This document shows positions 1,601 through 53,457 of a stretch of 64,000 bases of DNA, piece after piece (positions within the stretch are counted from its first letter, which is position 1; every line of letters begins with the position of its first letter). The position numbers and the translations under genes were made by a program. Source of the stretch: Felis catus (Eukaryota). The notes below the pieces were generated by a model. The model was given only the letters and a program-made list of their open reading frames with translations, was not told the origin of the DNA and ran no database searches. The stretch lies in assembly GCF_018350175.1 (NCBI RefSeq), contig NC_058385.1, positions 82,708,001 to 82,772,000 on the forward strand, in the 5' to 3' direction.

Positions 1601-2287
1601 AAAGGGAACATGACAGGGACTCCCAGGTCTGAATTCATGAAACCTGACGACCTGCCGAAGAACACAGTCTTGGGTCTTGAACTCACGCGGGTGCCGTGGG
1701 GGGAAGGATGGGGCCCCGAGTCACCAGAAGCGGAGACTCCAAGCTATAGGGAGCCAGGAGCGTGGACAAGGGAGCCCCCGGGCCAGCAGTCAGAGACAGG
1801 CTTTGAGCACCTGGGTTGGAAGAAAGTATGGCCACTGTCCAGGGGCCCAAGGTAGAATGTCCTGGAGACAGGCCAACAGGCTAGCTCCAGGTGTGCCCAG
1901 CATCCCAAGGAAAGGGTGCCCTAGCCAGGAAGACGGGTGATGAGTTTCCATTCCACAGAAGATCACTGGTTACCCACCTGCAGTGCACCTAGGCCCTCTG
2001 CTGGGTGCTGGGGAGCTACAGCACGCCCACGTCACCGTAAAGTGAGCCCAACAGCACCAGCAGCCAAGTGCACAGAGCCAGGTAAGCGCTGTGATGGAGG
2101 TGCGGCTGCAGGGAAGCCTAGAGGGCAGAGATGAGCTCGCTGGGGTGACAGGACGCTTGAGGGAGCAGGCCCCTGCAGACGCAGGAGGGGTCGGTGCATC
2201 CCAGCCGAGGCAGGACCTGTGCACAGGCCTGGAGCACGGAGGGCTGAGCCTGGCAGAGCAGAGAGGGCCGGGAGCGGGGCACAGCCT

Positions 2288-2300
2288 CTGACCTCACAAT
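2288..2300 (+). promoter_or_regulatory. CRE-like element CTGACCTCACAAT upstream of SPATC1
   Basis: TGACCTCA is one mismatch from TGACGTCA; about 140 bp upstream of the ATG; identical copy upstream of the paralogous exon at 42120-42132. Confidence 0.6.
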
Positions 2301-2437: not shown

Positions 2438-5400
2438 ATGTCTCTACTCGCCAATTATGAGGGGCTCCGGCATCAGATCGAGAGGCTGGTGAGGGAGAAC
2501 GAGGAGCTAAAGAAGCTGGTGCGGCTCATTCGGGAGAATCACGAGCTCAAGTCGGCGATCAAGACGCAGGCGGGCGGCCTGGGCATCAGCGGCTTCAGCA
2601 CCGGGTTCGGCCAGATGGCGGCCACTCCTCAACACCAGGGAAACTGTAAGAGACTGGGGCGGGGAGGGGGTCTCTGGGAGTCCTGGAGACAGGGCACGGA
2701 TAGTAACGAGCGGGTGGGACGGTGGCCCCACCAGGGGAGGACACGGGACCATCGGGACGGAGGGCAGAGCCGGGCACCAATTCCTGCACCCTGATGGGAG
2801 GAGGCCCCGCTCACCCCCCTCCTCTAGGCTGACCGTCCAAGCAGCCCCAAAAGGCTGTGAATTTCCCAGCTGTGGGATCCAAATGTGCCGCGCTCCTGGG
2901 TCTAGTGTGTCGCTTGCCCTCCTTCCCCCTCCCCCCCCCCCCAGCACCTCCCAGGGCCCTGCGCCTAGAGATGGCCACTGACAGCCCAGATCCAGGAGCC
3001 AGGGACAGAAACCAGGACCGAAGCTGAGGTCTGGGAGTCATTAGCGTGTGGCAGAGCCCTGGGGCTGGAGAAGATGTAGGGTGAGACGGAAGAGGCAAAG
3101 CACTAGCGGGCATTTGCAGAAAAAGTGGTGATCGGCAGGCTGGGGCCTCGGGAGCAGGGACTGAGCCAGGAGGGGGCCGGGAGGCCACGCGGCTGAGTGT
3201 GGTGATAGGGGCAGGGAGGGGCTGGGGACAGAAAGCTGTGGGCAGAAACTGGCTGGCACTGAAGATAACGGAGGGGGAATTTCTGGGGGTGGCAAGGCCC
3301 CAGGGTGAGGCGATAGGAGTCTGTGGCTGGCAGTGTGCTGTGAAGGTTACACAGGGCGAGCCGGCGATAAAACCCTGTGGTGGTCACACCGTAGCCATGC
3401 CCTCCCGACAGGGTCCTCCCTGTGCCAGAGAAGGCCCTGCGCCCCGCCCTCCCGCTGGCCCCTTCGTCCCCAGTCGGGCCCAGAATGGTCTTCCTCCCCG
3501 AGAGGAGGACTCTGCCCATCCTGGGGCCCCTGCAGCTCGGCCGTGGGCCACAACACTCAGCTGCTCCGGGAAGGTCACAGGTGGCTTCCTAAGTGCCACA
3601 TCCTTCTAAACCTCTGCGTGCAATTTGGGACCGATGACCCCCCTCTTTCTGGGTTTACCCTGGGCAGCGTCACCCACCCCCTGCTCCGGGCCAGCCCGGG
3701 CCCCGCGCTCCACCGCCAGCCAGCCCAGCACGGGCCCCCATTCTCCATGGGGCTGGAGGCCCCTGCAGACAGTCGTGCAGGCCCAGCAACTCCCTGGCAC
3801 TCGGCTCACTCCCAACCACACGTTTCTGATTGAGAACTTGGCCTTTCCACTGGGATGCTAAACCCTCCCAGGTCTGTGCTCCTGCCCTGAGGGTCCCACG
3901 CCAGGCCCTTACTCTTGGAAGCTGCCTCCCTCTGGTCCCCACACACCGGCTTCCCTGCTCTTGAACCACACTGTTCATCCGCGCGGCCTTCACCCCGTCA
4001 CTGGCCACAAGAGCACAGGCCTCTCCTCGGAAAGGCTTTATTGTAACGACTGAGACAATGCGTCGGCAAAAATAAAGACGCGGGGAGATACAAAATAAAA
4101 GAAATCTCAAAGCTTCACAAAAAAGTAAGTCTTCTCCTTTTGGGCTTGATTCTTAACAGAATCCTTGGGCCACGTTGGTTCTTCCCCTTCCTGAGGGGCC
4201 CAGCTTAGGGGGTTAGGAAAGGCTTTCTGGAGGGGGTGAGCCCACAGTGGTGGGAAGGCATTAGCGGGCGAGCAGCAGCTCCTGCAAACGCCAGGACCAG
4301 GGGGCAGCAGGGACGCGGGACCCGTCAGTGAGGCTGACGCCCAGGCTGTGTGTGGGTGAGCGTACTGGGTGCGTGGGCGGGGGGGGGGGGGGGGGGAGCG
4401 GCTAAGTGTGTTTGTACTGTGTGAGAATCGTGTGATTGTATCTGTGAGTGTCCTGTGAGTGTCCGTGTGGTTGTATCTGTGTGTGTGAAATCTGTGTGGT
4501 TGTATCCGTGACTGTGTGGGGTATTATCAGGGCCAGTGACACTGAGCAGTACAGCTAAAGAGGTCAGCAGAGGTCAGATCAGCGGGGACACAGGCCGGTT
4601 CCTAAGGGCAGAGAGCAGGGCCCGGTGGTTGTGGCGGAGTGAGTGAGCTCCTGCTGTGGAAGGAAGGGTCCCTCCAGCTGCTGTGGGGACGGGATTCGGA
4701 GGAGACGAGAGCGAGGCCAGGCCGCGCCGGCTGACACTGAGGCCCTTACAGCCCTGCGGGTGGCAGACCGCGGCCCGAACTAGGGGCGGAGAGAAACTGA
4801 CTCAAGCTAACTGCTTGGATGTGCAGGACGGACAAGGGAGTCCAGAAGGTGTCTCCGTTCGGGCAGAGGCGGTGGGGTGCCTGGCAGCGTGACCTCCTGA
4901 GACCGCGGAACTCTCGTCCCCGCGCCCAGCCAAGGAGGATCCCTGTGGTGGCCTCGGAGGAACTTTCTCTTTCTCAGGCCACTTCCTGCTTCTGCCTGCT
5001 CCTTGTGACTCACCTTCCTCGTGGAGTCAGGCTTTTACTCTTGATTTCCTCTTGTGAACTCAACCTCCAGTTCCTCTTTCCGGGCCCGCCCTTGCACTCT
5101 GGGTACGCTCAGGCCCGCGGTGCGGGGCTCAGGCCCATCCCCGCGGGAGAGGCAGCCCGGGCTGTGCCTGTGCTCCAGCGGCGCAGGGCTGCCCCCGGCT
5201 GGGAAGACGCCTGCGTGGAGCCACCAGTCCTGAAGCTCCGGCAGACGTCAGGGCTGGAGGGAGAAGGTTCAGGAGTATTGACCACTGAAGCCGCAGGAGG
5301 GGTGAGGCCACCTGAGAGGGGCGAGCGCAGCCGGTGCATGAGAGAAGCGGGGAGACGAGGGAAACCTCAGAGTGTGATGTCACAGAAGCCAAGGCACAGC

Positions 5401-8400
5401 TTCGAGGGGCCAGAGTGTCAACAGAATAAAGGCTGAAGAGTCCAGGGCCTCCGCTGACCTGGTGTGAACGAGCTCGGTTAGACTTGACCTCCACCACAGG
5501 TGCTAGCGGCCCAGGCTGTGAGGTGAAGAGTGAGGAGTGACGGAGAGAACGGCACGGTAGGCGGCCGACGCTCCGTTCCCGAAGCGCGGCTGCGGGCAGG
5601 CAGGAGCTGCTCGGACGAAGCCAGGCTCCTCAAGATGGCCGAGACCTGACCTTGTCCCTCTGCGGCGGGAAGGAGCCAGGAGAGGCGCTGGGAGGTGCCC
5701 CTACGGAGGGGAGGGAGGGCAGGAGGCTGAGGAAACCGGAACCATGGCTTCCATTCTCCCTGGAAAAATGACACCGTGGGAGCCGAAGATGAGGAAGGTG
5801 TGACACCGTGGATGCGGCGGGAGCTGAGAGTGGGACCTGGGGGGGTCCGTCTGGCTGTGCAGGGAGCTCGGATGGTGCCACCCGCCTTGGACCCTTTGGA
5901 CCCCTTGGACCGTAAAGGCGGCAAGCCACCAACTTGCTCAGCAGCGTTTGTTTGGGGCTCTGGAGGCGGGGGAGGCGGCAGGGACGCAGGCAGGCGGAGC
6001 AAGGACGGGTTTGGGCACCTCACAGAGGGAAACGGAGGCCAGCTGAGCTGTGGGAGCTGAGGCGACGAAGACGCCCGTGTGCTGGAGATCCAGAGAGGCT
6101 CCAAGCCGGGTGCCAAGAGTTCTGAGCGGGGCAGAAGGCGCTCCTGCACGCTCAGTGTGGGTAACCAGAGCAGGTGGAATGAACTTCACAGGGAAAAACA
6201 GGTGCCACGAGGTTCAGGCCTTGGCCCTGGAAGCATGGCAGGTGGGAGGTGGAGTCAGGATGGGATTTGGGCTCCAGGAGCCCTGCCCTGGGATGTCCCA
6301 GCAGATGGAAGACGGATGGGAAACCAGGCCTGTTGGAGTAGGGAGGAAACGAGGGCCAAACTGAGTGCACAAGGGACCACAACAGTGGCTGTCAGGACAG
6401 GTCAGCTGGGGGGGCAGGGCTCCGCTGCTCTTTGTGCCGGGACCTCCCCCACCCGGACTCCTTCTCTACCCAGGCCCACTCTGTTCCCAGCCCCTGCTGC
6501 CCTCTGTCTATCCTCTTGGGAGCTTCAGGCAGGTGGAAGTTTTCTGCCGCGGGGTGCGGCCTACTTCCTTTTTACCACCCCTGCTCCCCACCACCTCCCC
6601 ACCCCTTTGCTGCCCCCAAACCAGGGGCTTCCCTCCCCTCCAAGTCTGTCCATCCTCTCGGGGCCTTCTCCATACTCCCCACCTCCCCAGGACCCGTCCC
6701 TCCTGCATCAGAATCCCAGCCACCCTCCTCAAATCTTCTCACACCCCTCAGGATCAGGATCAACTCCCCCTCAGGACCATGGTCTCCGGGATACAAACTC
6801 CCACCTGGCTCCTAACCCTACCCTGACCCCCCCCTCTACCTCCCATCCCAGGATCTGACTCTAAGCACCCTAGGCCTATCCTCCCAGGACCCACCCCCCC
6901 GTGGGGACCGTCCTCCTCTTAGGATCCGTCCTCTTCCTGGACACCCCTCCCGGCCATCGAGACCCATCCCCCCACCAGGCCCCCAGGACTAGACCCCCGC
7001 TCAGGGCCAGCCCTCTCTCCCAGGCCCTGTCATCATCCCCTTTGGCTCTTTCCCCTCTTCCTGTCGCCCCAGCACTCTTGGAACCCTCAGCTAAAGCCAC
7101 TGGCCACTCTTCCCTCTGTGGCCCAGCTTCCCTCTCCATTTTCCCCGGGTCAAACACTGTAGCTGTGACGCTCTGGCCCCGCCTCCACGCAGATCCTCCT
7201 CCCAGTGATCTGGCCCCGCCCCGTGAGGGCCCCGCCAGTGCTCTGGACCCGCCTCGTGTCGGCCCCGCCCAGTGCCCTGGCCCCGCCTCGTGACGGCCCC
7301 GCCCCATGAGGGCTCCGCCCAGTGTTCTGGCTCCACCTCATGACGGCCCCGCCCTTTTCGGGTCCTGCCCGGTGAGGGCCTGCCCAGTGCTCTAGCCCCG
7401 CCTCATGACGGCCCCGCCCAGTGCTGTGGCCCCGCCTCGTGACGGCCCCGCCCCATGAGGGCCCTCGGGCCTCGCGTCGTTTTGGCCCCGTGAGGATCTC
7501 GCTCCTGTGAGGGCCTGCCCAGTGCTCTGAACCCCAGTGAGGGCCCCGTCCCCTGCCGTGGGAGAACCCGGTTTTTGTGGAGACCGGCGACTGCCTCCCT
7601 CAGGGGGGCGGGGTGGAGGCCAGAGAACCCTGGGCGGGATGCCCGGCCAGGGTCTACCCCTGGGCCTTGCTGACCTGGGGACCCCAATGGGGCCTCGGAG
7701 GGAAGCGAGGGACTGCCCTAGAGGAGCAGGTTGGGGGGATCAGAGTTCAGTCAAGCAATTTATTTATTTAAAAAAATTTTTGAGTTTATTTACTTTTGAG
7801 AAAGAAAGACAGTTTTTTTGGGGGGGGGGGGGCACAGAGAGAGAATCTCCAGCAGACTCCTCACTTTAAGGCAGAGCCCAACTCAGGGCTCAAGCCCGTG
7901 AACTGTGAGGTCATGACCTGAGCTGAAATCAAGAGCCCAAAGCTTAACGGACTGAGCCACCCAGGTGTCCCAGTTAAGCACTTTAAAACGTTGTAAGCTG
8001 CATTTGCAAATCTAAGACATTTGCTTATCGTTTTAACATTAATCTTCCGATGTAACGAGCAAACCTTCTTAGACCCTAGATGATTCTTACGTATAAAATA
8101 AACTATAAACAACAGTGAATCTAAAACTCTTTGAGGCTCTAATACTGTACCTAAGCCTAGGAAGATTTCAACTTGCAAATCTAAATCAATTAAATACAAA
8201 TTAGGAAAAGATTAAAACAATCACAAGTACATTTTGCATTAGGATGCAAAGCTATGGGACTGAAATCTCCTAAGTTTTTATGTAGATTCCAGGCAGCCCC
8301 TGCTGTGCGATCCGAGCGCCAGGTGTACGCCACGTGATCAACCCTCCCACGCACCACCTGGTGCTCACCCCCACCTGCGACCCTTCACCCCCCCCCCCCA

Positions 8401-14400: not shown

Positions 14401-17400
14401 AATGAAATCTTGCCCATTTGCAATAACACGGATGAAGCTAGAGAGTATTGTTCTAAGCAAGATAAGTCTGTCAGAGAAAGACAATGTGATTTCACTCACG
14501 TGTGGAATTGAAGAAAAAAACCAAACGAGCAAATGGGGGGGAAGAAAGAAAGAAAGAGAGAAACAGAGAGGCAAAGCGAGAAACAGACTCTGAACTCCAG
14601 AGAAGACACTGCAGGTCACCAGAGGGGAGGGGAGTGGGGGCGGGTGAGCTAGGTGAGGGGGGGGATGAAGGGGTGCACTTGTGATGTATGGAAGGGACGG
14701 TTTTCTATGTTATTTTCCAAAATCTAATATTACACTGTTAAATGACTGGAATTGAAATTGAAAACTTAATAAAAAAAAAGATTTAGGTAGAATTAGTTGT
14801 CATTGGGAAAATTGGCCAATTTGATGCCCATCGATCAAGGAGGCTCCACATGGTGGCAGGTGGGGGAGCTGGGAACCGCAGCGGCCACGGAGCAGCGTCC
14901 TCAGGGAAGGGTGCAGCTGGAAGGCCGCGTGGGGGCCCAGCCGGACGACAAGTGGACGGAAGGACACGGGCGACAGAGAAGGCCCAGGAGCAAAGAACGG
15001 GGTTTACAGTTTTAAGTGATTGAAGGAGAATCAGGAATACTATTTCTGGACATGCGGAAAGTACCCAAAACTCAAACATCAGCGTCTCTGAATAAAGTTT
15101 TATTGGTACAGACCCACCGTATTTGTTTCCGTCACGTCTGGGGCCACGCTGGTACCACAGCCCCCAAGGTGATTGGTCACAAGAGAGACCGGACGCAAAA
15201 CTGGCCGTATTCACCACCAGCCCTTAATAGACGAGGTCCGTCTACCCCTGATCTATAAACTCACGGAGAGAGTCTTCAAGGCAACGCGGAGCTTTTCATC
15301 ACGCCTAATGGCAGGATGACAGGACTATGACGGTTCCTAATCTTTCTTTGGGCTTTTCCGTAGCTCCATCCTTTCTCTGTAGTGAGCGAGCGCGTGACGC
15401 CTAACGACAACCGCCTAACTGGCAGTTTTCACACTGCGCCCTCCCCCAGCTTCCGTGCCCCCAGGGGTCTTCTCCCCCCAAACAGTGGTCGTTCAAGGGC
15501 TCGCTCCTCAGGAACCCAAGGGAAATGGGCTGTCTGCCCCCCCACCCCCGCCCAGGGATCCAGGAGTATGAAGCAGCCGTGTCTGGGCCAGCCCACCCTC
15601 TTGAACCTGCATTCGCTATTCCCGGGGACGCTGCGGGCAGGCACGGACGAGCCACCATCGGTGCCGCTGAGGCTCTGTGCCTGTCCCAGCTCTGGCCTCC
15701 CTGAGCGTCCCACACCTGGTGCAGCTCTGCTGTCCCCACAAGGACAGTGGTCAGGAGTCCCGGGCCCACTGCTCCCCACCAGGGAATGGATGGGTCCACT
15801 TGGCCACCTGGGGGACCACCGCCGGGAGACCCTCCCCAGTGAGGGGTCAGTAGCTCAGTGCAGTGGGCACATGGAGGGCTGGGCAGCTGTGGAAGGTCCC
15901 TGTGACTTGGTGGGGGGGCAGGTGTGCAGAGAAGTGAGCCCAGGGGGACGAGGCTGCCTCAGAGGACGGAGAAGAAGCGGGCCAGACCCTCCGGTGGGAT
16001 CTGCCGAGTTGCCCCACAGACCCCGTCGGCGGGGGAGGGTCATCGTCCGGCCACCCAAGAGACAGGGGCAGAGCTGGTCAGCTCGTCAGAGGCAGGCAGG
16101 CACCCGGGCCCTCCCCCAGTGGGCCCGCCGGGGTCTCAGTGCTTTCTCTGTGTCCCCCAGGTGTCTTCCTGCCCCTGTCCCCGGCAGCAGCACATGAGCC
16201 CGTCCTGGAAGAAGTGGGCGTTGTGGCTCTGGCACCCCTGGCCGACATGCTAAGCAGCCCGCAGCCCGGCCCCACGGCAGACCCCATCGTGAGCCCCCTG
16301 ACGGGCCCCCTCAGCACCTTGCTGCCCGGTCCAGGGCCCATGTCACAGAGCGGCCTGTTCTCCAGCATCCTGACCGGCCCCCTGACTCCGAGCAGCCCCC
16401 TGGCCGGGCCCCTGGCAGTGGCCCCAGGAGGCACACTGGGCAGCTCCATGGGCACGGTCTCCACCGGCCCTCTGACTCCGAGCAGCACCCTGGCCGGCCT
16501 CATGGCAGTGTCCCCAAGAGGCACACTGGGAAGCTCCATGGGCCTGCCCTCCACCGGCCCCCCGACTCCGAGCAGCCCCCTGGCCGGGCCCCTGGCAGTG
16601 GCCCCAGGAGACACACTGGGCAGCTCCATGGGCACGGCCTCCACCGGCCCCCTGACCCCGAGCAGCCCCCTGATGGCACCTACGACAGGCACAGTGGCCA
16701 TCTCTCTGAGCAGCCCTCTGCTCACCTCCACAGCTGCCCCTCTAGGTGTTTCTCAGAACCTTGTGGCCAACCCCGTGAGCAATCTGGTGCTGCCGGCGGC
16801 CCAGAGGGTGCGGCTGACAGAGCCGTTCCGAGGATGCCCATCTGGACCCCCTCCCTCCGCTGGAGCAGGGCCTGCTGGCACCACCAAAGGTACCCGGTGC
16901 AGGGGGAGGGACAGGAGGGCACCCCCAGCCCCCGCCAGGCCGGTCCTGGGTCCTGACTTGCTCTGACCCTCCTTCTCTCCTCTCTGCCCCACAACGTCAC
17001 TAGTCCCAATGTCCACTGAGCACCCACAGCCGACCCAGAACCTGGAGCCTCTCGGCGTGACATTTGTGGGCGTGCCCTTGCACACCTCTACCCCCATGGA
17101 GACCAAGGGCGCAGCTGGCCCCGGGACGGCCTTCTCCTTCAGCACCTCGGACGCCCGGGCCCAGCCCGGTGCCCCCCAGGGACAAGCAGTTCCTGCCCCT
17201 GCCCCCGTCGCCCCTACTGCTGCCCCCCAAGCTACCACCGACTACGCCTCCCCCGGCACCACCCACGTTGCCCAGTGCCCACCCCCGTCCCCCACCCGGG
17301 CACACTGCCCCCCCACCCAGCCCTCATCCACCCCCCACTCCCCTCCTCGAAATCCCCATTCCCCACCTCGAACCTCGTCCTCCCCGGCTTCAGTCAACGA

Positions 17401-36500: not shown

Positions 36501-38177
36501 ACAGCACCTGCACGTCCTGTGGGAGAGCGGCAGCCAGTAAGGGGCCGGGCAGGCAGGGGTGGGGCGGGCGGAGCAGGCCGGCAGGGGGCCTCACCTTGAG
36601 CTGGCCCCGGAAGCCACGGCGGAAACCCTGCACGTAACGCCGGATGGTGGGGGTAAGGTAGGCGTCGGCACAGGCCGTGTGCCCCCGAGGCACGATGCGC
36701 ACCATGGGCATGGTGTCCGAGGACAGTGCCACGTGGGTGAAGCCCAGCTCCCGGGCCAGTGCGCCCACCTGCTGCTCATGCTGGGCCCACCTGTAACGAC
36801 GACCCCACGGCGCTTCGCCTCTTGCCCACGGCCTCCGGCCCACCGCCCAGAGCCCCGGCCGAGCCCCGCTCACGTGTAGGAGTGCATGAGCACCACGGCC
36901 AGGCTGCGGACACCTCGGGACAGGAGTGCCTCCAGCTTCCCACGCAGAGCCCCAAGGTCCACAGGCTGTCGCACCTCCAGCAGGTCCCCCGTGCGGCCTG
37001 CCAGGAGGCCCGTTACCATCCGTCAAAGGCCCACCCTGCTGCCCCCGTGCCCCCAGCCCTGAGGCACCCGCACCTTTGACAGGTGTCCCTGCACCTGGCT
37101 CCCCGCGATACAGCACCACGCGCTCGTCCACCTCCAGCACCTCTTCGTACAGCACCTCAGGCATGGGCACGGCCTGGGGACAGGCAGAGGCTCAGAGGAC
37201 ACCCAGGCCCGAGGGTCCTTGCTGGGGTCCTGCGCGGGTGGGGCAGTGCGGGCGAGGGGATGTGTCCCGGCAGTCCAGTCCATAGGCCCAGGAGACACAG
37301 ACGGGGCCAGCCCCAGCAAGGCCCCCCCACCCCCAAGGAGTGGCTCTCTGCCCCCAGGCACCTGAGTGCAGCCAACTGCCACCCCCGCAAGGGCAGCTCC
37401 CTGGAGGAGCCCAGCAGTAGGGGTGGGGGTAGGGGAGTGGGAGAGTGGAGGTGGCTCCTACCCCTCACCCCGAACAGTATGTCTTGGGGGTGCTCCACAC
37501 CCAGGATCCAGGACAGGGCATGGTGACAGACAGGAGCAAGACGTTGTGACCACTCTGAGGGCTTGGGGGACAGAGTGCCTGCTAGGAGTGTCTGGAACCT
37601 TCTCTCCGCCTATAAGCTGCTAGCCTGGGGCCAACACTGACCCTTCCAAGGGCTGCCTTCCCGAGGGGCCAAGGCATCCCTGGGAAACCATGAGCAGCTG
37701 CACGACGCAGCCACCAGCTGGAGTGGGTGCGCTCACCAGGTCAAAGAGGTCCTCTCGGGCCTGGGTGCCCACGTGCAGCAGGTCTCGGAAGCCACGCGTC
37801 ACCAGCAGCGCCACCCGCTCCCCCCGCCGCTCCAGCAACGCGTTGGTGGCCACCGTGGTGCCCATGCGGATGCTGGCAATGCGGCTGGTGTCCAGCGGCT
37901 GGTCCCGCGGCAACACCACGCCTCCTTCCTGGGAACCACAGGGTCCAGTGTCAGGCCCCGGTCCCAGGTCCCTCCCCAGCCCGCCCCTCTGCCCTGCCCT
38001 GGCCACCTGCTCCAGGATGCGGCGGATGCCCTCAGTAGGGGCGTCTGCATAGTTGGCGGGGTCCTCTGAGAGCAGCTTCAAGACCCTCACTTGCCCCCCG
38101 GGGCACTGGGCAAAGACATCTGTGAAGGTGCCTCCACGGTCGATGGCGAAATGGAAACGCCCCTCGGGGCTGCCCAT
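28905..38177 (-). CDS. OPLAH: 5-oxoprolinase (ATP-hydrolysing), 26 coding exons, 1288 aa
   Basis: Exons (minus): 38177-38007, 37928-37737, 37173-37074, 36997-36874, 36790-36595, 36516-36351, 36237-36099, 36003-35936, 35796-35531, 35393-35281, 35193-35023, 34835-34698, 34611-34473, 34352-34240, 34011-33860, 33195-33035, 32951-32850, 32767-32593, 31061-30877, 30751-30605, 30510-30376, 30235-30086, 29994-29837, 29755-29595, 29402-29305, 29051-28905 = 3867 nt. [20 protein letters not shown]...[10 protein letters not shown]; AATAAA (minus) at 28888-28883. Confidence 0.97.
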
Positions 38178-38349
38178 GGTGACAGGGCTGGAGTCCAGCA
38201 CTGACTCTTCAGCCGGCAGTCCTGGGAGAACTGGACGGAGACAGCAGATCAGGCGACAGGCCCGGGGGTCACCCGCGGCTTGGTAGCCTTGGGCAGAGCC
38301 GGGCTGAGGAGAGCAAGGTGGGGCGGGGGGGGGGGGGGGGGGGGTCGGA

Positions 38350-39250
38350 GGAGGCGCCCGGGGCCGAGCCCGGGGCTGCAGGCCCAGCTCAGAGCGCCGC
38401 CTGAGGCGCGGCCGCAGCCGGGCAGGTGGGGGCGCCAGACCTAACGCCCCCCGTTACCCTGTTCTCAGGGCCCCGGCTTGCGGCGCAAATCCCCGGACCC
38501 GCCAGAGGCGGAGGCGCCCCGGGGAGCCCACGGGCTGGTGGGTCTGGGCTCCTATAGCACGAGGAGGCACGGGGGCTGGGGGCAGGTGACTTCCCCAGTC
38601 GCTCGACCTTGGGGCCCAGGCCGAGTGGGACAGGGGGCACGGGGCGGGGCCTGCGCCGGGGAGGGGGCGGGGCTCGCGGCCGGGTTGGGGGCGGGGGCGG
38701 GGAGGCGGGGAGAAGCGGGGCGCTGGAGGGTCCGGGTGCGGGGCCCACCTGGCGGGTCGGCTCCCAGGCGCTCGCGGTCCGCTCGGGCCGCGCTCCCTCC
38801 CGGCCCTGCCCGCCGCACCCCCCCCTCCCCCCGCCCGGAAGCGGGGCCCGCCCCCCGCCCGACCGGTCCCGCCGCCCACGGCCCTCCGGGTTGCGTCAGG
38901 TTCGGCTCGCCGGGAGCCGCCTCCCTCCTCCGCCGGGAGCCACGCCGGGGGACCGCGGGGCGCGGGGCCGAGCTGGGCCAGGGGCGGCTCCGTGCTGGCG
39001 CGTCCCCGGCCGCCGGCCACCTCGGTTCAGCCGGCCACTCGAGGTGCCCCGGGGAAGGCGGAGCAGGCCACCCTCCGAAGAAGTAAGAGCCCAGACGAGC
39101 TCGGACTGCACCCTGGCGCGGGGCAGTCACGCCGTGAGGGACGGGGCTGGGGAGGGGGGTCGTGGAGGGGCCCCGGGCAAGGGCCCCTCCGTAGCCGTCA
39201 ACCCCGCTGCTGCCCGCCCAGGGCCGGCCTTGCCACAGCCCAGGCTGGGC
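38350..39250 (-). promoter_or_regulatory. OPLAH: OPLAH CpG-island promoter with probable non-coding exon 1 (donor after 38749)
   Basis: Very CpG-dense with GC boxes; donor ccgccag|gtgggc at 38749/38748; second candidate donor cagg|gtaacg at 38458/38457; exon 2 acceptor ttctcccag| at 38222. Confidence 0.7.
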
Positions 39251-41817: not shown

Positions 41818-42052
41818 CTCTTTCGGCATCCTTGAACTTGATGGTTCTGCGCCGGGGCAGCCGGGGGCTGGTGGCCACCTCGGCCAGGAGCCCGGAGCCA
41901 CAGAAGCCCAGGCCTCTGCCCCGGGTCTGGAGCACCAGCTTCAGCTCCTGGTTCTCCTGGATGAGCTGCACAAGCCGTCGCAACTCTTCGTTCTCCTGGG
42001 CCAGCCGCTGGATCTCCCGCCGCAGACCCTCGTAGCTGCTGAGGGGGGACAT
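41818..42052 (-). CDS. Speriolin N-terminal-domain paralogous exon; putative alternative coding first exon of OPLAH
   Basis: MSPLSSYEGLRREIQRLAQENEELRRLVQLIQENQELKLVLQTRGRGLG...RRRTIKFKDAER; ungapped 29/49 identity to SPATC1 exon 1; strong donor GAG|GTGAGG in phase 1, the same phase as SPATC1 exon 1. Confidence 0.8.
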
Positions 42053-42119: not shown

Positions 42120-42217
42120 ATTGTGAGGTCAGCGGCCGCCCCTGCCCCCGGGCCTCAGCCGCATTCCGGGGGTCAGAGCCAAGGCCCCTTGAGCAGGGCA
42201 CACCTGACCTCTGACCT
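42120..42217 (-). promoter_or_regulatory. Putative germ-cell promoter of the speriolin-like exon
   Basis: CTGACCTCACAAT at 42132-42120 (minus), identical to 2288-2300; perfect DR1 AGGTCAgAGGTCA at 42217-42205. Confidence 0.55.
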
Positions 42218-52881: not shown

Positions 52882-52998
52882 CTGGCTGTGCCTTTCCCCG
52901 CGGAGGCTGCTGTGCAATGGCGGCCAACAGCAGCCTCCCCGGTAGTGTGTGCAGCCTACTGACTGCACGGGTGGCCCTAAGGGACCGCGGAGACAGCG
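52882..52998 (+). pseudogene. SNORA70: Retroposed, 5'-truncated copy of H/ACA snoRNA SNORA70 (U70)
   Basis: cctttcc...tgtgcaatggc...ACAGCA (H box, 52927-52932)...ggtagtgtgtgcagcct...ctaagggacc...gagACAgcg (ACA box, 52993-52995). Matches SNORA70 as I recall it and lies directly upstream of RPL10 sequence, its host gene. Confidence 0.8.
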
Positions 52999-53044
52999 CT
53001 TCCAGTGGAGATTGATGTCTGATCACATGCTTTCTCCAATCTAG

Positions 53045-53457
53045 GCTGCAGACAGGTATGCGGGGTGTCTTTGGAAAGCCCCAGGGCACAGTGGCCGGGG
53101 GTGCGCACTGGCCAAGTCGTCGTGTCCATCCGTACCAAGCTGCGGAACAAGGGGCCTGTGACGGAGGCCCCGCGCAGGGCCAAGTTCAAGTTCCCTGGCC
53201 GCCAGGAGATCCACATCTCCAAGAAGTGGGGCTTTACTGAGTTTAATGCGGACGAATCTGAAGACATGATGGCTGAAAAGCCGTTCATCCCAGATGGCTA
53301 TGGGGTCAAATACATCCCTCATCACGGCCCCTTGGACAAATGGCGGACTCTGCACTCACGAGAACTTCAGACTGCCCGTCCCCATTCATGCCCACCAATA
53401 AATCCTGCTTCCTGCCTGAATAAACAAAAAGCAAACCGAAAAAAAAACCCCAAAAAG
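53045..53457 (+). pseudogene. RPL10: RPL10 partial processed pseudogene (last two exons, 3' UTR, decayed poly-A)
   Basis: [17 protein letters not shown] / [11 protein letters not shown]...[19 protein letters not shown]...[11 protein letters not shown]; frameshift in the G run near 53100; stop codon mutated; AATAAA at 53397; A-rich tail. Confidence 0.93.

Follow-up and report, generated by a model that had tools for sequence, protein, structure and literature searches.

The closest described relatives of the element analysed here are CRE/NR sites, whose 8-base core binds both CREM-tau and GCNF in electrophoretic mobility shift assays (EMSA), as shown with a probe from the mGPDH gene (PMC2853129). 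A 26-mer from mGPDH that binds CREM and GCNF gives, by itself, spermatid-only expression in mice; known CRE/NR sites lie at -51/-44 (mGPDH), -55/-48 and -73/-66 relative to the start; and a 5'-extended form of the 8-mer is described as enriched in testis promoters (Yamashita 2008, as cited in PMC2853129). A second set of spermatid genes has been linked to SOX30: Tnp1, Tnp2, Prm1-3 and Spem1 are lost in Sox30-null testis, whereas Ace is not (PMC5732304). Spatc1 and Oplah are not among the genes named in the sections of that paper on the Sox30-null testis, its main text gives no binding motif, and the link between CREM and SOX30 is stated there to be undetermined.

Within the window, by which we mean the whole 64,000-nucleotide stretch of Felis catus DNA analysed, a 13-mer upstream of two speriolin-type exons contains the CpG-free core TGAGGTCA, which is identical to the CRE/NR 8-mer of human mGPDH (GPD2), proacrosin and testis ACE (t-ACE), in agreement with an earlier proposal that it is a variant CRE of the testis-ACE type. 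Both mGPDH and ACE are widely expressed enzymes with a separate spermatid promoter, and OPLAH would be another. Unlike the mGPDH-type sites, the conserved unit in the cat ends in a SOX-like ACAAT, and the OPLAH promoter would derive by duplication from a neighbouring sperm gene and bring with it a coding coiled-coil exon. Relative to the consensus CRE TGACGTCA, which CREM-tau binds, the motif matches 7 of 8 bases with its one mismatch at the central CpG, and is thus not a consensus CRE; it also has the following C of the extended CRE palindrome.

A 13-mer upstream of two speriolin-type exons

SPATC1 (speriolin), a sperm-centriole gene and one of the genes of the window, is read from the plus strand with its ATG at 2438. 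Its first coding exon (2438..2645) has a phase-1 donor after 2645, and the first 130 residues of a Felis catus speriolin model map exactly onto the window. A second speriolin-type exon lies on the minus strand (41818..42052, coding part 235 nt, phase 1) and is, from Pfam and homologs, a predicted alternative first exon of OPLAH; the Speriolin_N domain (Pfam PF15058) scores above cut-off in both exons. The first coding exon of OPLAH, which encodes a housekeeping enzyme, has its ATG at 38177 and spans 38007..38230 on the minus strand, and the CpG island at 38300..39200 (GC 0.80, CpG o/e 0.74) is its presumed somatic promoter; no match to the 13-mer was found in 39050-38800 of this island. Three further open reading frames of the window are what we take to be SMPD5, EXOSC4 and GPAA1. 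A coding exon of SPATC1 also contains 90-base tandem repeats at 16373-16672 (+), and felid speriolin models vary in length. Open reading frame fragments at about 52900-53400 (+), which we take to resemble the end of the ribosomal protein RPL10, are probably a processed pseudogene.

The 13-mer occurs at 2288..2300 on the plus strand (copy A) and at 42132..42120 on the minus strand (copy B). As the preliminary description had stated, the two copies are identical and each is oriented toward the ATG of a Speriolin_N exon; even when 1 mismatch is allowed, the window has no other match (shuffle mean 0.07). The distance from motif to ATG is unequal, 137 nt for copy A and 67 nt for copy B, and the final two bases of copy B start an ATG (42121) that is in frame in the cat and would add 23 codons. 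The flanks had been described as diverged, which is correct, but their homology is still detectable: 46 of 82 columns are identical, with an alignment score of 44 compared to 21.8 ± 7.1, and the observed 44 is attained by 6 of 2000 shuffles and by 10 of 3000 real GC-rich windows. As the flanks are diverged yet homologous, the promoter and the exon were duplicated together, as had been suggested. The description of the two as first exons is less secure, as four felid SPATC1 database models have upstream exons joined at 2307, directly behind motif copy A. These models contain two such exons, at 1070-1132 and 1961-2081 (+), of which the mapped 1961..2081 exon is spliced to the acceptor at 2307, and together they add about 105 residues.

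Identity of the two copies is in itself a limited argument for constraint. Between 65 and 146 of 5000 shuffled window pairs share a 13-mer, and at 55-65% background identity an uninterrupted match of 13 bases would arise with a probability of 2-15%, so that constraint is unproven from the cat genome alone. Only 5 of the 11 fourfold sites common to the two paralogous exons are the same.

The perfect AGGTCA-N-AGGTCA repeat (DR1) previously reported at 42217-42205, 72 nt upstream of copy B on the minus strand, was also confirmed. It is the sole perfect DR1 in the window, with a shuffle mean of 0.01 and an expectation of 0.02 from the 53 half-sites present. A role for it was not supported: in 4 of 4 long homolog read-throughs, from 3 lineages, at least 1-2 mismatches are needed for the DR1 where the 13-mer needs 0-1. 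We therefore dropped the DR1 as a part of the promoter element on account of the loss of the perfect match in other species, and consider it probably incidental. A perfect AGGTCA DR4 is present at 4561-4576 (+), in SPATC1 intron 1.

The age of the duplication was approached with a tree built on 55 columns, which places marsupial and placental SPATC1 together and separate from the OPLAH exon (support 89/74). A placental-stage duplication was not rejected (AU p 0.31), in a comparison whose second tree omitted 14 of 44 rows, and no OPLAH-type exon was recognised among five named marsupial rows. The lineages that bear the fusion place the duplication no later than their common ancestor, and it may be older. 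The wombat and koala 'speriolin-like' models have a SPATC1-type N-terminus and no C-terminal domain pattern, and are possibly separate marsupial duplicates.

A predicted long OPLAH and conservation of the motif

The duplicated exon had been assigned to OPLAH, and both its splice geometry and database proteins bear this out. Its phase-1 donor after 41818 is in frame with two tandem OPLAH acceptors, 38230 and 38221, which lie nine bases apart and are both used in database isoforms (1384 and 1381 aa); the predicted N-terminal extension is 96 aa with the former and 93 aa with the latter. A speriolin-OPLAH fusion is predicted for 17 database proteins (one of them human and partial) from primates, rodents, pika, dog, goat, deer and a bat, and the exon has 69-90% identity in 11 homologs. 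The fused isoform is thus already present in databases as automatic predictions. These long 5-oxoprolinase isoforms and stand-alone 'speriolin-like' models use the same exon and the same two acceptors as the cat locus and come without promoter analysis; in whales, a bat and bison the exon is annotated as a separate 'speriolin-like' gene. We found no description of a speriolin-tagged OPLAH or of a spermatid OPLAH isoform in a literature search outside which most subscription papers fell; the papers it gave for the two genes together are, judged by title, GWAS, CNV or expression lists. A complex prediction for the two N-terminal segments, made without alignments, scored 0.10.

We judged conservation of the motif from the translations of homolog open reading frames that read through the region upstream of the ATG; such peptides only bound the underlying DNA, and many of the rows come from close kin. 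For copy B we collected 27 distinct upstream strings of at least 10 residues, of which 7 ended before the motif. Among the remaining 20 strings, 17 fit the motif exactly (12 in an LTSQW frame and 5 in an xDLTM frame), 2 fit the core only and 1 does not fit, while the spacing from motif to ATG varies from 53 to 65 nt; named carriers include porcupine, deer and a whale cluster. For copy A, 19 of 120 SPATC1 homologs had an upstream read-through, of which 2 were too short and 4 were the felid models that splice past the motif. The motif fits in 12 of the 13 unspliced read-throughs, again in two frames (LTSQY or SDLTI), and the 13th is a one-codon variant; here the named carriers include polar bear, harbour seal, armadillo and manatee. 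The CRE half is retained in 19 of 20 read-throughs for copy B and in 13 of 13 for copy A. In three of the four sets the residues that cover the motif show 80-100% constancy, and in the remaining set, which has 3 rows, 67-100%, compared to mostly 20-80% in the flanks.

As the motif is read in two frames at both loci and its spacing shifts, the constraint appears to act on DNA, and a protein-level cause of its conservation was rejected. Cross-species conservation had been proposed as a check on the motif, and from these translations (17/20 and 12/13) the 13-mer is apparently kept at both loci across placental mammals.

Spermatid promoters and mouse knockout data

We scanned 250 nt above the ATG of 12 spermatid genes, chosen from recall and located in the cat genome by Pfam family or by the protamine cluster. 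The scan used a 12-mer, the 13-mer minus its first base, which was dropped after six panel genes had been seen. At up to 2 mismatches, and on either strand, this 12-mer was found in 6 of 12 promoters (PRM1, PRM3, TNP2, CABS1, SPATA3 and TEX35) against a background of 2.4%; none of 300 shuffled motifs equalled this count, and dinucleotide shuffles averaged 0.27 with 0 of 3000 reaching 6. The full 13-mer was found in 3 of 12 (0/3000 shuffles), the six held-out genes gave 3 of 6 for the 12-mer (0/3000), and the somatic promoters of the window gave 0 of 4. SPATC1L had a best 12-mer match of 3 mismatches at -128, and every site in its 8 kb of upstream sequence differed from the 13-mer at 3 positions or more. 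A metagenome scan returned 2 loci, and the one inspected was bacterial and unrelated.

The last five bases of both motif copies are ACAAT, which is the SOX core and the form preferred by SOX30. The hexamer TCACAA, picked after six panel genes had been seen, was present in 9 of 12 panel promoters and in 5 of 6 held-out ones (1/3000), compared to 5 of 12 for the CRE-like 8-mer. The best matches in PRM1, TNP2 and CABS1 keep TCACAAT whole with the CRE half broken, and the PRM1 and TNP2 variants, with TGCC, are two changes from a CRE. The steadiest part of the word in other spermatid promoters is therefore the SOX-like TCACAA half, which the preliminary description had missed. Two other shared words were noted in these cat promoters: GTGCC(C/A)TCACAAT, common to PRM1 and TNP2, and GTCACAATG, found upstream of the ATG in TNP1, SPEM1 (twice) and TEX35. 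The window also contains words 1-2 mismatches from the 12-mer at 7913, 11444, 45831 and 52169, in repeat-rich parts that we take to be feline SINEs. A genome-wide count of the 12-mer (505, compared to 297 for a reversed control) was set aside because such repeat-borne near-matches would inflate it.

Comparison with the sites in the supplement of PMC2853129 extends the likeness beyond the core in some genes. The reverse complement of the motif has 11 straight bases in common with the mGPDH and proacrosin sites, the CRE of SP-10 differs from the 12-mer at 1 position, and that of Prm1 continues into a similar tail; mouse t-ACE has the core only, without TCACAA. Of the six Sox30-dependent genes (PMC5732304), five carry TCACAA upstream in the cat, as both motif copies do, and PRM2 lacks the word yet is Sox30-dependent; this comparison pairs cat promoters with mouse knockouts.

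RNA from Crem-null mouse testis had been proposed as a further check. In the published change list, Oplah falls by -1.58 and Spatc1 by -1.52 on a log2 scale, about 3-fold, together with Gpd2 (-2.03), Ace (-2.42), Acr (-0.51) and, far more strongly, Prm1 (-5.53); the list does not include the neighbours Exosc4, Smpd5, Grina, Gpaa1 and Cyc1, and it has Sharpin slightly up (PMC3285179). These are gene-level changes in adult whole testis without later spermatids, and are hence confounded by spermatid loss (PMC3285179). By the Oplah value, roughly two thirds of the Oplah signal in testis requires Crem itself or the cells that Crem permits, which fits a spermatid promoter and not necessarily direct control by CREM. 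Speriolin protein is already present in spermatocytes, and the mouse Spatc1 promoter is also bound by BNC1/TAF7L.

Direct binding by CREM, which the earlier proposal implied, found no support in a published ChIP-seq list. For the coordinates expected on mouse chr15 we used what we take to be the position of Spatc1. In the CREM ChIP-seq list of PMC3091680 there is no row for Spatc1, and chr15 shows no peak where either promoter would be expected; the sole peak labelled Oplah lies 12.9 kb away from the start, toward the 3' side, which would correspond about to the SMPD5 island of the cat window. The same list has Ace (44 reads, against a cut-off of 40), Acr and Tnp2, and has no rows for Gpd2, Acrv1, Prm3 or Spem1 (PMC3091680). 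Since Ace is barely included and these four genes are absent, the negative result at SPATC1 and OPLAH is only a moderate one.

Alternative readings and a candidate spermatid switch

We put it at slightly better than an even chance that a core for CREM and GCNF, together with an overlapping half that SOX30 likely reads, acts as a spermatid switch for SPATC1 and the predicted long OPLAH. This reading builds on the motif, the homology of its flanks, the splice geometry, which keeps the frame, the match to proven CRE/NR sites and the enrichment in spermatid promoters. With greater assurance, we regard the 13-mer as very probably a promoter element of one kind or another for germ cells. Closest to the preliminary description is a plain CRE/NR site to which CREM-tau and GCNF alone would bind, with the extra bases as a preferred flank. 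The shared t-ACE, mGPDH and proacrosin core, the testis-promoter enrichment reported for the 5'-extended 8-mer (Yamashita 2008, via PMC2853129) and the decrease of both Oplah and Spatc1 in Crem-null testis all agree with it, but we consider it rather unlikely given that PRM1, TNP2 and CABS1 keep TCACAAT with a broken CRE half, that TCACAA outnumbers the CRE-like 8-mer in the panel, that the ChIP-seq list has no CREM peak at either promoter, and that Ace, which has the core only, is Sox30-independent (PMC5732304). A different emphasis would have one germ-cell factor other than CREM, either SOX30 alone or an unidentified protein, read the whole of TG(A/C)C(A/C)TCACAA, in which case the CRE likeness would be incidental and the Crem dependence indirect. 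We judge this improbable: the TGCC variants of PRM1 and TNP2, the missing CREM peaks and the modest Crem-null drop are in its favour, yet in the published data an identical core is bound by both CREM and GCNF in EMSA and shows occupancy at Ace and Acr, and the CRE half is itself kept in nearly all read-throughs of copy B and in all of those of copy A.

Two further readings place the motif outside transcriptional control. CTGAC, which the motif contains, fits the branch-point consensus, and a branch A usually lies about 18-40 nt before the AG with a pyrimidine tract. The motif might accordingly act at the RNA level in transcripts begun further upstream, as a branch point with a 3' splice site or as a signal in the 5'UTR, and both the felid splice from 2081 to 2307, whose acceptor is 6 nt past motif A, and the models of several other mammals in which exon 1 contains the motif would accommodate this. 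However, the branch A would lie only 15 nt before the AG at copy A, against 34 nt at copy B, the 13-mer is intact at copy B without a near AG, and the panel matches fall on both strands. In the copy B homologs, moreover, the ATG at the motif's end is out of frame and in strong context in 12 of 17 read-throughs and in frame in 5; since such an ATG would hamper translation, a motif within the mRNA fits poorly, and we hold the RNA-level reading to be very unlikely. That the 13-mer is a neutral leftover of the duplication is hardly credible. The 2-15% chance of a 13-base run in homologous flanks, noted above, speaks for it, but across placental lineages both loci have apparently retained the motif despite changes in its spacing and flanks, and fewer than half of the fourfold sites agree between the paralogous exons.

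Under the composite CREM/SOX30 reading, an old duplication would have carried a copy of the core promoter of SPATC1 and of its first coding exon, in inverted orientation, to a site that precedes the CpG island of OPLAH by 3.3 kb. Transcription would begin between motif and ATG, with CREM-tau reading the CpG-free core, GCNF opposing it as a repressor and SOX30 reading the overlapping TCACAAT half. Both factors could contact the two overlapping bases at once, since a bZIP protein occupies the major groove and the HMG box of a SOX protein the minor groove. Starts upstream of the motif may exist as well, as the models of bear, seal, armadillo, manatee, deer and porcupine run through the motif as exon. 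The speriolin-type exon would then be spliced to OPLAH to give a 93-96 aa N-terminus that starts with the speriolin coiled-coil segment, and this coiled coil may place OPLAH at the spermatid centriole or neck.

The element apparently belongs, as a conserved member, to a class of spermatid elements that is already known, but its extension and its locus appear undescribed. We did not find the extended motif or the SPATC1/OPLAH setting in the literature searched, although two SOX30 ChIP-seq papers outside that search may report the motif; a composite CREM/SOX motif was likewise absent from the passages of PMC12012180, PMC9223233, PMC10454534 and bioRxiv 10.1101/2021.06.17.448807 that were consulted. 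In its full form the proposal would be that the motif is an unrecognised composite CREM/SOX30 element that defines a spermatid programme, in which CREM targets with TCACAA need SOX30 and t-ACE-like ones without it do not, and that placentals copied it with a coiled-coil exon onto OPLAH, yielding a sperm-specific enzyme of the glutathione cycle tethered at the centriole or neck. We offer this full form tentatively, as a possibility that we ourselves rather doubt.

How SOX30 and CREM-tau share their targets is stated to be an open question in the discussion of these factors in PMC5732304, and a word with two halves makes it testable. As an overlapping 12-13 base word with separable halves, the motif predicts which CREM targets need SOX30. 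If the reading is true, a conserved long OPLAH would have arisen from a captured neighbour promoter and coiled-coil exon, and would provide 5-oxoprolinase in developing sperm.
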